Shown here one piece after another: positions 12,740-48,167 of a stretch of DNA of 64,000 bases. The translations under genes were made by a program, and so were the position numbers. This DNA comes from Chloroflexota bacterium (GTDB lineage Bacteria; Chloroflexota; Limnocylindria; Limnocylindrales; CSP1-4). The stretch's first letter is position 1. Each line of letters begins with the position of its first letter. The notes below the pieces were generated by a model that worked only from the letters and a program-made list of their open reading frames with translations, was not told the origin of the DNA and did no database searches. Location of the stretch: NCBI GenBank assembly GCA_027364875.1, contig DAHXON010000002.1, positions 25,192 through 89,191 on the forward strand, in the 5' to 3' direction.

Positions 12740-13375
12740 TCAGGGTCGATGGTCGCGACCGATTCGGCCGGTCGTGGACGGTGCCTCGGCGGTGCCGCGG
12801 CCGCCGTTGTATATGAGGCCACCGCCTCTGGCGTAGTCGACCAGCACCGCCGCGGCCTCCTCACGGCAGATGCCCCGCGTCACCTGGATCCCGCGGGCCG
12901 CGAGCGCCTCGGGCCAGCCGTCCGGCTTGGCGCCCTCGTCGAAGCCGACCCCCTCGGCGTCGTCGCCCGTCGCCCCGCAGAGAATGCTCTTGACGCCACT
13001 CCAGGGAATGGCTCCCAGGCACATGGCACACGGTTCCGCGCTGGTGACCAGCTGCATCGTCGGCAGCCCCGGCGCCCCCAGGTCGTAGCTGCCAATCGCC
13101 TGCTGGGCTATGGCGATGGCAACTGTCTCGGCGTGGGCGAGAGAGCAGCCCAGCGGCACCACCAGGTTGACGCCGGGAGCCACCACCCGCCCACTGCCGT
13201 CCTCAAAGACAACGGCCCCGAACGGGCCGCCGCCGCGCGCGGCGTTCTCCCGGGCGAGCGAGATGGCCAGCCTCATCCGATCTTCGGGGATCCGGAGCGC
13301 GCCGGGAGACGCATCGATCAGGTCGGACACCCACTCGGGCACCGACACGACCAACCTGGGATACAGGTGGTGCAT
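12740..13375 (-). CDS. guaD: guanine deaminase-like CDA-fold nucleobase deaminase
   Basis: ORF 12740..13375. GGGPFGAVVF, HAETVAI, SAEPCAMCLGAIPWSG and GFDEG match my recollection of B. subtilis GuaD (GGPFGAV, HAE, EPCPMCLGAI, GFDD). Confidence 0.8.
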   Translation of the reverse strand: MHHLYPRLVVSVPEWVSDLIDASPGALRIPEDRMRLAISLARENAARGGGPFGAVVFEDGSGRVVAPGVNLVVPLGCSLAHAETVAIAIAQQAIGSYDLGAPGLPTMQLVTSAEPCAMCLGAIPWSGVKSILCGATGDDAEGVGFDEGAKPDGWPEALAARGIQVTRGICREEAAAVLVDYARGGGLIYNGGRGTAEAPSTTGRIGRDHRP

Positions 13376-14534: not shown

Positions 14535-15110
14535 TCACCCGTAACCGCGGCGGAGCAGATGACGAGCGCCGGCCATCATGGCGGCCTGACCTGCAACCTC
14601 AAACCCGAACACGTCCGCCAGGCGATCGGTGATGTTGAAGGCGAAGGCCACGGCCAGAGCGTCGCGGATCTGCTGGGGGGTTACACCGGCGGCCAGAGCG
14701 GCGCGGATGTCCTCCTCGTCGATGTGCTGCTCGCGGGTCAGCGTACCGAGCATCCGCAGCGTCGCCCTCAACGGCTCATCGATCGGCGCGGTCTCGAGGT
14801 TCGACAGGGTCGCGGCGACCTTCGCATCGTCGCCGTACCAGAGGCTCGAGGTGGCCGAGTGCGCCGCCACGCAGAACTGGCAGCTGTTGACCTTTGAGAC
14901 GTACGCCGCCATGAGCTCGCGGTCGCCGACCGACCACTCGGAGGGACCACGCATGGCCTCCTGGGTCAACGGACCGGCACGGTAGAAGTCAGGCCGGTAG
15001 AGGGCTACTTTCACGGCGTCGAGCACAGGCTGGCGGGACACAATGCGAATGAGCACGAAGAGTGCCCTGGTGCGCAGCCGGTGGCCCCGGTCGAGAATGG
15101 CCAGACGCAC
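14535..15110 (-). CDS. carboxymuconolactone decarboxylase (AhpD-like) family protein with CxxC
   Basis: ORF 14535..15110. VSKVNSCQFCVAAHS plus the C-terminal DEEDIRAALAAGVTPQQIRDALAVAFAFNITDRL, typical of the CMD/AhpD-like family. Confidence 0.8.
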   Translation of the reverse strand: MRLAILDRGHRLRTRALFVLIRIVSRQPVLDAVKVALYRPDFYRAGPLTQEAMRGPSEWSVGDRELMAAYVSKVNSCQFCVAAHSATSSLWYGDDAKVAATLSNLETAPIDEPLRATLRMLGTLTREQHIDEEDIRAALAAGVTPQQIRDALAVAFAFNITDRLADVFGFEVAGQAAMMAGARHLLRRGYG

Positions 15111-15113
15111 GGC

Positions 15114-15735
15114 TCAGTCCGCCGCAACGGCGCGGAGCGCCTTCAGCCCACTCTCGTACTGGCGGGTCGCCTGACCGATCGCCGCGCAGACCACGATCTC
15201 GAAGATCTGATCCTCGGTCAGTCCGGCGCTGCGGACCGACGCGATGTCGTCGTCGGTGACCATGTAGGCGTGGTAGGCGGTCTTATCGACCAGGGTCCGA
15301 AGCGGTTCATCCAGCCCGTGGAGGTCGTACGCGGCACGGCGCAGGGGACGGGGCGCCTCGCCGTCGCCATCGAGGGCCCGCCTCACGAGCGCGTCGTGCA
15401 GTCGACCGATGTCAGTCATGTTCGCCGCGAGCCCGTCTCGGGGGATCGCTGGGCTCATCGGATCGGCGCGGCTCCAACTCCCGGAGCTCATGCGCCTCGC
15501 CTGCTCCGAGCAACCCCGCCCTCGCCGTCGCGATCAGTGCCAGCCGGTCGCGCTCTTGCACGTCGACATCTCCGATTTGCCAGTCATGCGGCTTCGCCAG
15601 AATTGCGCCCGCCAGCAGGCCCGGATACCCCGCGCGCTGACGCGCTCCCATCAAACGACCCTGTGCCGGGGACGCCGCCTGACCGGACCGAAGAATGCCG
15701 CTTGCCAGGGAGTATCGGCAGGCGCCGCGGCGCAT
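15114..15735 (-). pseudogene. second CMD/AhpD-like paralogue split over two frames (possible frameshift; CxxC lost)
   Basis: ORF 15412..15735 carries the N-half (WQIGDVDVQERDRLALIATARAGLLGAGEAHE, parallel to WSVGDRELMAAYVSKVNSCQFCVAAHS). ORF 15114..15491 carries the C-half (LDEPLRTLVDKTAYHAYMVTDDDIASVRSAGLTEDQIFEIVV). The two frames overlap at 15412-15491. Confidence 0.45.
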
Positions 15736-33896: not shown

Positions 33897-33934
33897 GAAC
33901 CCGATCAGGATCAGGAGCGCCTCGGTGATCTAGC

Positions 33935-35874: not shown

Positions 35875-36736
35875 TCAGCTGGTGAAGCAATCACGGAGGA
35901 GGCGCAGGGCCGGCGCCGCCTGTTCGGGCGTGACGTCCTGGACTATCAGCGGAGCGCTCAGGCCGAGCCTCGAGTAGAGCTGAGCCACGTGGCGGTAGTC
36001 GACGACTCCTCGACCCTCGAGCGCCTCCTGCCACGGGATGACGTCTTTGGCGTGGAGGCAGACGATCCGGTCGGCGAGGGCTACGAAAGAACGCTCGAGC
36101 ACTTCGTGATGAGTGGCCCGCGAGTGTCCGGCGAGCAGGTTCGCCGAGTCGGCTACGATTCCCACGAGGTCACCGTCGCGGCCAAGCTCTGAGTAGAGTC
36201 GCACCGCAGCCTCGGCGTCGTTGATCACATTCCCGTGCTCGGGCTCGATCCCGAGCACCCCCCCCCCCCCCCCCCCCCACGCCCGCGGGCGCCGCGGCGG
36301 CCAGCAGGATGTCGAGCTCCGCCCGCATGTCTCCCCAGGCCGCCTTGCTCGAGTTGTCCGGGTGATAGGCCCACATGCGGTCGGGGTGCCTGCTGCCCGT
36401 ACAGAGCGTCACCGCCCGCGCCCCAAACGCGGCGGCGTGGCCGATCAGCTCGACGGCCTTCTCGGTGCCTGAGCGGCGGACGGTCGGATCAGGGTGGGCC
36501 ATGTTGTAGGAACAGGAGACACCCCAACAGGACACACCGGCGGAGGCGAAAGCGGCACGCACAATCGCCGGATCAAGCTGACGCCACTCGGCGGGCTCCG
36601 GGATGGTCGAGAAGCCGATGGCCTTGAGGTTGAGTTGGGCGAGTGTGTAGCCCGCGTCCGCGATCGCCTTTGCGACGTTCGGGGCAGGCCCGATCGGAAA
36701 GACCCGGGCGAAGATTCCGAACTCCGGGGCCGTCAT
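35875..36736 (-). pseudogene. xylose-isomerase-like TIM-barrel sugar-phosphate isomerase/epimerase (IolE/IolH-like) interrupted by a frameshift in a poly-G/C tract
   Basis: N-part is ORF 36170..36736 (MTAPEFGIFARVFP...LLAAAAPAGVGGGGGGG then out of frame). C-part is ORF 35875..36258 (VLGIEPEHGNVINDAEAA...CLHAKD). The two frames meet exactly at the C21 run; a run of 20 or 23 would restore a single ORF. Confidence 0.75.
36258..36278. repeat. homopolymer: 21 consecutive C (G21 on the coding strand)
   Basis: Counted directly: 3 C at 36258-36260, 10 at 36261-36270 and 8 at 36271-36278. Confidence 0.95.
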
Positions 36737-42816: not shown

Positions 42817-42833
42817 GCAGCTCCGGTTGCCCG

Positions 42834-43903
42834 GTGACCATCCGAGAACCAGCGATCCCGCACGCCGACGCCGCTCCGGTCGCCGTTTCGGCCCGGGACG
42901 AGATCCGTGTGCCTTCGGCCGACATACTGCTCATGGGAGCGACCCTGCTCTGGTCGCTGAACACTCCCGCGGTCAAGGTCGGGGGGCCGAGATCAGCCCT
43001 CTCGCAATCCCGGTAATCCGGTTCGGGCTTGGCAGCCTGGCGCTATTCGCGATCGTGAAGATTCGCGAGGGTACGCTCGGGATCGAACTGCGAGACCTGC
43101 CGCTGCTGACGCTCTGCGGCGTCCTGGGGGTGACCGTCAACCAGGCCTGCTTCGTCTATGCCCTTACCAATACCGGTGCCAGCGATGTGGCCTTCCTTTT
43201 CGCGACCGGCCCTCTCATCACATCCATCCTGGCTACGGCCGTCGGCCTCGAGCGGCTGGGGCGACGCCACTGGTTGGGGGTTCTGGCGGGGCTCACAGGG
43301 ATCGCCCTGATCGTCGGGGGCCGGACCGGCGCGGGGGTCGGCACCGATCTGCTGGGCGCAATTCTTGCGATCGCCGCGGTCGTCTCGTCGAGCGCGTCGG
43401 CCCTGCCGATCCGGCACCTGCTGGGCAGGTATTCGGCCTGGCGGATCCTGGCCTATGAGCTGGGGATCGGCAGCCTGATCCTCGTGCCGTTCGCGGTCCC
43501 CTCGCTTGCGTCGCAAGACTTCGGACGGGTGTCGCCGGCCGCCTGGACCGCCCTCGCCTACACGGTGGTCTTCACCGGGGTGGTGGCCAACATTCTGTAC
43601 TTCACGGCCATCGGTAGGGTCGGCCCGTCACGAGCATCCATGTTCGGCTACCTGCAATCCGTGCTGGCCGTGGCGTTCGCGGTCATCCTGCTCGGCGAGC
43701 GAGTGATGCCCCTGCAGCTCGTTGGCGGGCTGATCGTCATCGGAAGCGTCATTCTCAGCCGGAGGGAGAAACCGTTGCCAGGGCAGCGCCTGCTACGGAA
43801 GGGCGATCTCTTCACCGATCCGCCGGCCGGGCGGTTGGCCGCGGCGACCGGCCGCGTGTCCCGGCTGCGCGACCGGGGACGGAGGCGAATTCCGGGCCCT
43901 TGA
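42834..43903 (+). pseudogene. EamA/DMT-family transporter with an apparent -1 frameshift in a G6 run
   Basis: ORF 42834..43016 encodes TM1 (ILLMGATLLWSLNTPAVKVGG). ORF 42827..43903 continues with AEISPLAIPVIRFGLGSLALFAI and the rest of the fold. The frames switch at GGGGGG 42981-42986; one extra G would give ...AVKVGGAEISPL... Confidence 0.65.
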
Positions 43904-47033: not shown

Positions 47034-48167
47034 TCATCCGAACCAGCGGGTGAGGTCGGCGCCGGTCAACGGTGCCGGACGGTCGAGCGTGGTCGAGATG
47101 CTGATGGCTCGCGACTCGTCACTCGCGCGCTGAATCGCTTCGAGGACCTCGAGGGAATGCAGGCCCAACTCGCTGCTTGTGCGGCAAGGACGGCCCGATA
47201 GCGACTCGACCAGATCGAGGACACCCAGCCCGCGCGTCAAGGGGAAACGTTGCCGGCCGGGTTGAATATCCGGCAGGACCGTCGGCACCAGTCGCCATTC
47301 GTCGTCCCTGTGGAGGCGGACGAAGACGTCCCCGTCGTACCAGGCGGGATGGCCGGATTCAAGGGTCCCGTTCTCGCCGTAGATCTCGAAGTCCGGCAAA
47401 TGATGCGGATCCCATATGTCGAAGCTGGCGACGAAGGTGCCCACAACGCCGGACGCATGGGTCAGCGTCGCCGAGGCATGCGTCGGAACGGACACCGGGA
47501 TCTCGAACATCCCGGTCGGCCTGGTGACGCGCCTCACGCTTGCGCCTATGCGCGTCCGCCCCGAAACGGAGGCGATGGGGCCAAACAGGTTGACGAAGGC
47601 GGCGATGTAGTAGGGACCGAGGTCGAGCAGCGGTCCTCCGCCGGGCTGGAAGAGGAAGCCCGGGTTAGGGTGCCTCTCTTCCACTCGTCGATACGTCGAG
47701 AACGCCGTGTAACCGATGATCTCGCCCAGTTCTCCGCCATCGATCACGGCACGAGAGGTCTGATGAACCGGGCCGAGGAATGTGTCCGGGGCGCACGCCA
47801 GGCTGATGCCGTGCCTCGCTACGACCTCGAGGGCCGTGCCGGCGCGCAGCGTCGTCGCGGATAGCGGCTTCTCAGTGAAGATGTGCCGGCCGGCCGCGCT
47901 CGCCTGCCTGATCACCTCGTCGTGCACGGTCGGTGGCGTGAGATTGACAACGACATCTACTTCGGGGTCGGCCAGCAGGTCCGGCAGAGTCCCGGGCTTT
48001 CCAACACCGTAGGTCGATGACGCGGCTTCGGCTCGAGTGCTGTCCGCGTCGGCGAAGCGAACGACGCGGACGAGCTGGCTGGCTCTGGCCAGGCCGGTCA
48101 TGTAAGCGGCGAGGATGTTGCCGCAACCCACGATGCCCAAACCAGCCGGCAGATCGACGTTGCGCAT
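47034..48167 (-). CDS. Gfo/Idh/MocA-family oxidoreductase
   Basis: ORF 47034..48167. GLGIVGCGNILAAY, HIFTEKPLS. Confidence 0.9.
   Translation of the reverse strand: MRNVDLPAGLGIVGCGNILAAYMTGLARASQLVRVVRFADADSTRAEAASSTYGVGKPGTLPDLLADPEVDVVVNLTPPTVHDEVIRQASAAGRHIFTEKPLSATTLRAGTALEVVARHGISLACAPDTFLGPVHQTSRAVIDGGELGEIIGYTAFSTYRRVEERHPNPGFLFQPGGGPLLDLGPYYIAAFVNLFGPIASVSGRTRIGASVRRVTRPTGMFEIPVSVPTHASATLTHASGVVGTFVASFDIWDPHHLPDFEIYGENGTLESGHPAWYDGDVFVRLHRDDEWRLVPTVLPDIQPGRQRFPLTRGLGVLDLVESLSGRPCRTSSELGLHSLEVLEAIQRASDESRAISISTTLDRPAPLTGADLTRWFG

Follow-up and report, generated by a model that had tools for sequence, protein, structure and literature searches.

The run of 21 guanines that splits an isomerase gene in the 64 kb of DNA analysed here (the window) is most probably a sequencing and assembly artefact, formed at a hairpin where short reads fail, and not part of the genome. 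It acts like the poly-G artefact of two-colour sequencing combined with a sequence-specific error. The tract is private to this assembly and one contig end, the breakpoints of other assemblies coincide with it, a hairpin and a GGC motif adjoin it, the terminal miscalls at the site are biased toward G, and there is a second aberrant join in the same region. The sequence-only reading of the window had listed an assembly or basecalling artefact third among its explanations; the breakpoints, the hairpin and the tract-free sister assemblies now favour it over the others.

The run occupies positions 36258–36278 on the minus strand (C21 on the plus strand), exactly where 21 consecutive C had been reported. 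It is the only homopolymer of at least seven bases in the 64 kb, all the other runs being six bases at most, and from the base composition the expected number of runs of at least 21 C or G is ~9e-6. On the minus strand the sequence across the tract reads GGCGT, then G21, then TGCTCGGGATCGAG. The gene and the two open reading frames into which it falls are these:

35875–36736, minus strand: xylose-isomerase-like TIM-barrel gene (PF01261), 280 aa when intact, split by the tract

36170–36736, minus strand: N-terminal ORF, 188 aa, ending ...AAAAPAGVGGGGGGGARDR...

35875–36258, minus strand: C-terminal ORF, 127 aa, beginning VLGIEPEHGNV

Both ORFs exist as first described, and the gene is indeed split. 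Relative to the sister assemblies a single base (C or A) has been exchanged for 20 G, giving a net gain of 19 nt, and apart from the replaced base nothing around the tract is lost. Tract lengths of 2 + 3n generate a single ORF of 280 + n aa, so that the lengths of 20 and 23 proposed earlier to be in frame are arithmetically right. A length of two corresponds to the wild-type protein, while 21 is out of frame. In a protein cluster listing, fragments of 188 and 117 aa are found together on one NCBI contig.

What kind of protein is interrupted? When joined, the two halves form one PF01261 (AP_endonuc_2) domain that scores 74.3 bits against a gathering cut-off of 31.1, and the joined protein covers positions 4–248 of the 249 in the profile. 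It is identical to an intact protein of 280 aa (P0137) that is present on two NCBI contigs, and the JGI name for the gene is ‘sugar phosphate isomerase/epimerase’. An AlphaFold2 model of the intact isomerase has a pLDDT of 97.5, with strands and helices in alternation. In this model the insertion falls between V153 and V154, in the turn from the helix 131–151 to the strand 154–157, and this strand leads to the invariant E158-P159-E160. None of the NCBIfam models reaches its cut-off with the isomerase; the best is L-ribulose-5-phosphate 3-epimerase, at 19.6 bits compared with the 317 required, and the sole sequence match in the PDB is D-tagatose 3-epimerase (E = 4e-4). Thus the earlier description of the protein as IolE/IolH-like is good at the level of the superfamily and does not carry over to a specific family. 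Judged from its sequence, the gene is a generic member of PF01261.

The gene stands last in a minus-strand series comprising transketolase, PfkB kinase, hydrolase, ROK, GFO/IDH/MocA oxidoreductase and the TIM-barrel gene itself, and after it come an ABC sugar transporter, an enolase-superfamily enzyme, a DHDPS-like aldolase and an SDR. This group of genes is a sugar-catabolism cluster. More broadly, the window from ~26800 to 50100 is a large sugar-catabolism island whose products include an L-fucose-isomerase-like protein, two GFO/IDH/MocA oxidoreductases, an epimerase and a Cgl0159-family protein. Further genes of the island encode a KduI/IolB-like isomerase, a fused transketolase, a PfkB kinase and a ROK protein, and the remainder an ABC transporter, an enolase-superfamily enzyme, a DHDPS-like aldolase and an SDR.

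How widespread is the tract? The comparison drew on the sister metagenome-assembled genome (MAG) contig DAIDTW010000001.1 (L083; GCA_027457025.1), on DAIDTX010000013.1 (L097) and DAIDTX010000080.1 (L086) of the sister MAG DAIDTX, on the Logan contigs SRR9320188_19862 (L084), SRR9320188_245219 (L087) and SRR9320187_67774 (L088), and on SRR28012198_41070 (L099), which comes from a different lineage and another run. Upstream of the site L083 matches the window at 99.6% identity, and for 13.7 kb downstream the identity is 100%; at the site itself it has GGCGTCGTGCTC and no tract, and it encodes the intact 280-aa protein. L097 reads GGCGTAGTGCTC, again with no tract. The tract is thus missing from sister assemblies that are near-identical to the window (99.6–100% DNA identity). 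A 96%-identical protein (P0001), also of 280 aa, reads ...AAAAPAGVVLGIEPEHG..., and its contigs L081 and L082 (94% DNA identity) have GGCGTCGTGCTCGG where the window has GGCGT-G21-TGCTCGG. The tract was sought in L083, L097, L081, L082 and L099 and is absent from all of them, and an insertion or Gly run at its position is found in none of 120 protein homologues. The sequence-only reading had held that orthologues free of a Gly run, together with a tract traceable to an assembly join, would speak against a genuine tract. This is essentially what is observed, given the 120 homologues, the four contigs (near-identical or 94% identical) that have no insertion, and the contig ends at or next to the tract.

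Outside the window, G21 forms the last 21 bases of L084, and 21 is the sole tract length seen in these two. A scan of JGI metagenome contigs for both flanks lying 1–31 nt apart gave no match, and hence no further data on tract length. A literature search for SRR9320187, SRR9320188, GCA_027457025 and DAIDTW returned nothing relevant.

L097 has some differences of its own. It carries TAG in place of GAG at 12996–12998, which is codon 47 of the same isomerase gene, and within the final 45 nt of the contig it differs twice more, each time by a change from C to A. The three substitutions all belong to the G>T / C>A class; they could be genuine variation, or else errors made close to a contig end with low coverage.

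The distribution of the tract bears directly on the phase switch that had been suggested for the gene. This would require a heritable G-tract subject to slipped-strand mispairing, with the isomerase ON at 20 or 23 G (carrying an insert of six or seven glycines) and OFF at 21. From 21 G the loss of one base or the gain of two would indeed restore the frame, and an in-frame insert located at the helix-to-strand turn of the model might be tolerated. Yet none of the relatives examined has the tract, not even the assemblies at 99.6–100% identity; just the one length of 21 is seen; the 64 kb contain no second long homopolymer; and the gene belongs neither to the surface nor to the restriction-modification genes, its product being a cytoplasmic catabolic enzyme. 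All the evidence for an artefact counts against a phase switch as well. With the tract missing both from near-identical sisters and from the 120 homologues the suggestion is not supported, and we consider a phase-variable locus highly improbable. Slippage from a seed repeat is rejected as the origin of the run. The relatives have GTCGTG or GTAGTG at the site, and GTCGTG contains no seed repeat from which slippage could have built it.

The preferred explanation, an artefact, draws on the sequence that adjoins the tract on either side:

36235–36258: GC-rich hairpin adjoining the tract, CGTGCTCGGG-ATCGAG-CCCGAGCACG in the sister assemblies

36280–36291: 12-nt palindrome CGCCCGCGGGCG with a GGC motif, immediately upstream of the tract on the minus strand

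In the sister assemblies the hairpin has a stem of 10 bp and a loop of 6 nt, with a calculated DNA folding energy of -13.1 kcal/mol (z = -3.55). The run begins where this stem begins, on the same base, and the stem in the window is 9 bp long because its outermost C is the base that the run replaces. Counting this one, the 64 kb contain just eight distinct perfect hairpins whose stems reach 9 bp or more, and the chance that the tract would abut one of them is ~1e-3. On the other side, the GGC lies 2 nt upstream of the run. The fold of the palindrome is no better than that of shuffled sequence; it is therefore rejected as a second hairpin, and it is the GGC motif that matters there. Inverted repeats and GGC motifs trigger sequence-specific errors in Illumina sequencing, in which consecutive miscalls begin at a fixed position, leading to coverage loss, gaps and hindered assembly (Nakamura et al. 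2011; PMC3141275).

The tract site is a breakpoint of independent assemblies, from the same read set and from another. L084 ends with ...GCGGGCGT followed by G21 (GGCGT + G21), at window position 36258. Beyond the tract other contigs begin, L086 at a distance of 21 nt, L087 at 48 nt and L088 at 147 nt. L097 crosses the site free of the tract and stops 26 nt later, where it overlaps L086 by 6 nt. L099 ends with ...GGCGTCGGG where its lineage has GGCGTCGTGC. No contig was found that reaches the tract from the opposite side as a C-run. The window, L084 and the tract-free L097 have in common an A allele at position 36470. L097 thus has the same background without the tract, and still ends past the hairpin, showing that the hairpin itself causes the breaks.

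These observations suggest a route by which the run could have been made. Reads of the minus strand would meet the GGC-containing palindrome and then the base of the 10-bp GC hairpin, whereupon extension would fail. On a two-colour Illumina instrument the lost signal would be called as G, and the reads would become ...GGCGT followed by Gs. Normal coverage over the hairpin would be lost, leaving dead ends in the de Bruijn graph on both sides, and we infer that the assembler bridged these through a poly-G k-mer. The length of the run is exactly 21 G, and SPAdes and MEGAHIT by default take 21 as their smallest k, while BayesHammer also works with a k of 21. Dark-cycle miscalls would give G-runs in register with the right flank, and a few of them would be enough because the flanks are G-rich; just three of the eight bases before TGCTC are other than G. 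A flow-cell bubble, in which bases are replaced by Gs, is rejected as a single-read event since no downstream bases are lost, and may have been a contributor of G-run k-mers.

Some features stand against an artefact. The right flank resumes exactly in register, with only the replaced C lost. Permanent dark-cycle tails by themselves do not explain this, so reads or k-mers must exist in which Gs are followed by TGCTCGGG..., and the origin of these k-mers is not explained with certainty by the artefact account. Moreover, there are exactly 21 G both in the window and in L084, the latter assembled with k = 31, and a real G21 molecule is the simplest account of that count. One possibility is that Logan stopped at 21 G through in-branching from poly-G contexts sharing the last 9–10 bases. 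Lastly, the run is linked to one strain background by the A at 36470, in L084 and the window.

The same features can be read in favour of a real insertion. Here ~19–20 G would have been inserted at the base of the hairpin in one sub-population, for example while a fork that had stalled there was repaired or restarted, with inactivation of the isomerase; the resulting G21, being hard to sequence, would then break short-read assemblies. The in-register join, the identical 21 G in two assemblies from different software and the link to the 36470 A allele are in keeping with this, as are other lesions of the cluster in the same assembly, namely a 159-nt deletion with an imperfect direct repeat and a 1-nt deletion in an EamA gene (both discussed below). 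Together with the TAG stop at codon 47 in DAIDTX, these lesions could mean decay of the cluster. Against this, we know of no mechanism that would make a 19-nt homopolymer out of GTCGTG, where there is no seed run. L097 shares the A-allele background and ends past the hairpin without any tract, L099 likewise ends in spurious Gs at the site despite its different lineage and run, and no contig meets the tract as a C-run from the other side. On this evidence we think a real, strain-private insertion unlikely. In its more specific form, a very recent in vivo insertion at the hairpin base that knocks out the isomerase in one strain, we hold it to be distinctly unlikely. If it were true, non-templated or reiterative synthesis where a fork had stalled or broken might, for instance, have produced the insertion, which together with the hairpin-associated loss of 159 nt 2.3 kb away would mark a hairpin-driven gene decay. 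A real tract would be an unusual de novo long homopolymer in the high-GC genome of an uncultured bacterium.

A second anomaly in this assembly is likewise associated with a hairpin:

33917–33918: aberrant junction, 159 nt of the sister contigs missing in the window, ~2.3 kb from the tract

The missing 159 nt are present in L086 (2321–2479) and in L082. They include an 11-bp GC hairpin, CCGGCGCGGGC-TCG-GCCCGCGCCGG, after the gene for a sugar-binding protein, along with the ribosome-binding region and codons 1–41 of an ABC permease, which is 308 aa in the sisters compared with an ORF of 267 aa in the window. The calculated fold of this hairpin (-22.6 kcal/mol, z = -5.3) is stronger than that of the hairpin at the tract. 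L087 and L088 both end at it, and DAIDTW010000001.1 has a gap of 10 N there. Once again G is miscalled at the base of the stem: the first stem base, a C, is read as G in L088 (GCGTTGC) and in DAIDTW (GCGTTG), where the true sequence is GCGTTCC. Since breaks occur at both hairpins, the 2.3-kb piece between them is a separate contig in other assemblies, and in the window this piece has an aberrant junction on each side. On either side of the 159-nt deletion lies one copy of an imperfect direct repeat of 8 nt, GGCGTTCC / GGCGCTCC. The loss is probably a collapse at a coverage dropout, the alternative being a slippage deletion, either real or made during PCR.

Elsewhere the window differs from the sister assemblies mostly by clustered SNPs, and by three small indels besides the tract. 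Patches of SNPs are found at 47214–47268 (10 in 55 nt) and 43105–43485 (~14 in 380 nt), and the combinations of alleles are mosaic in three assemblies, while other stretches are 100% identical over 13.7 kb. From the sequences, such clustering and mosaicism suggest either a consensus over mixed strains or recombination. Long-read homopolymer error is rejected as a source of the run, because over 13.7 kb the window agrees with a short-read scaffold at 100% identity and the differences are dominated by SNPs.

Two further frameshifts had been proposed, and these fared differently. The first, in the G6 run at 42981–42986, results from the loss of 1 nt in this assembly alone. An extra base is present there in L083, L084 and a DAIDTX contig (on the minus strand, CCACCCC compared with CCCCCC in the window). 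The deletion alters the opening codons of an EamA transporter gene on the plus strand (42827–43903) and leaves the EamA domains intact; 323 aa are called in the sisters, while the ORF in the window is 358 aa from a TTG. The second, a split in a CMD gene, is not confirmed. The ORF at 14535–15110 on the minus strand (191 aa) is by Pfam a complete CMD-family protein, and a Pfam search with the neighbouring minus-strand ORFs at 15114–15491 and 15412–15735 gave no match.

Our analysis gives the tract small biological weight. What the organism really carries is most likely the intact isomerase of 280 aa found in the sister assemblies, an ordinary sugar isomerase/epimerase. The significance of the tract lies rather in quality control. 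In the deposited MAG two GC hairpins appear to have given rise to assembly faults, a poly-G bridge at one and a 159-nt collapse at the other, which between them create two false pseudogenes, the isomerase and the ABC permease. When MAGs are scanned for phase-variable tracts or pseudogenes, long G or C runs that abut hairpins and have a length near the k-mer size should be suspect.

Homopolymeric contingency loci are represented by the poly-G/C tracts of Neisseria, Campylobacter and Haemophilus, and by the 7C tract of mycobacterial glpK. Like these, the present run is located within an ORF whose reading frame depends on the tract length, 2 + 3n being in frame and 21 out. Unlike them, it is not conserved, its gene class is atypical, it coincides with an assembly breakpoint and it is seen in one length. 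To our knowledge, 21 nt is also far longer than the known tracts in high-GC Actinobacteria. A contingency locus should be heritable, at the same site in relatives, and here five contigs and 120 homologues lack the tract; it does not qualify as such a locus.

The run behaves instead like known sequencing errors. As in the errors of Nakamura et al. (PMC3141275), a GGC lies directly upstream, a 10-bp inverted repeat begins at the first aberrant base and assemblies are interrupted in several data sets, although those errors were substitution miscalls on the four-colour Genome Analyser while here there is an apparent 19-nt insertion. In the poly-G artefact of two-colour Illumina instruments (NextSeq/NovaSeq) lost signal is called as G (PMC13218037). 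The present run likewise consists of G on the strand that is read and has an abrupt, fixed start; one contig ends in the run, and nearby ends carry spurious Gs. It differs in being internal, with the correct flank in register, for which we infer an additional step of assembly. The run starts at an inverted repeat and a GGC, and independent assemblies break at the site while others (L083 and L097) cross it with no run, just as would be expected of such an artefact.
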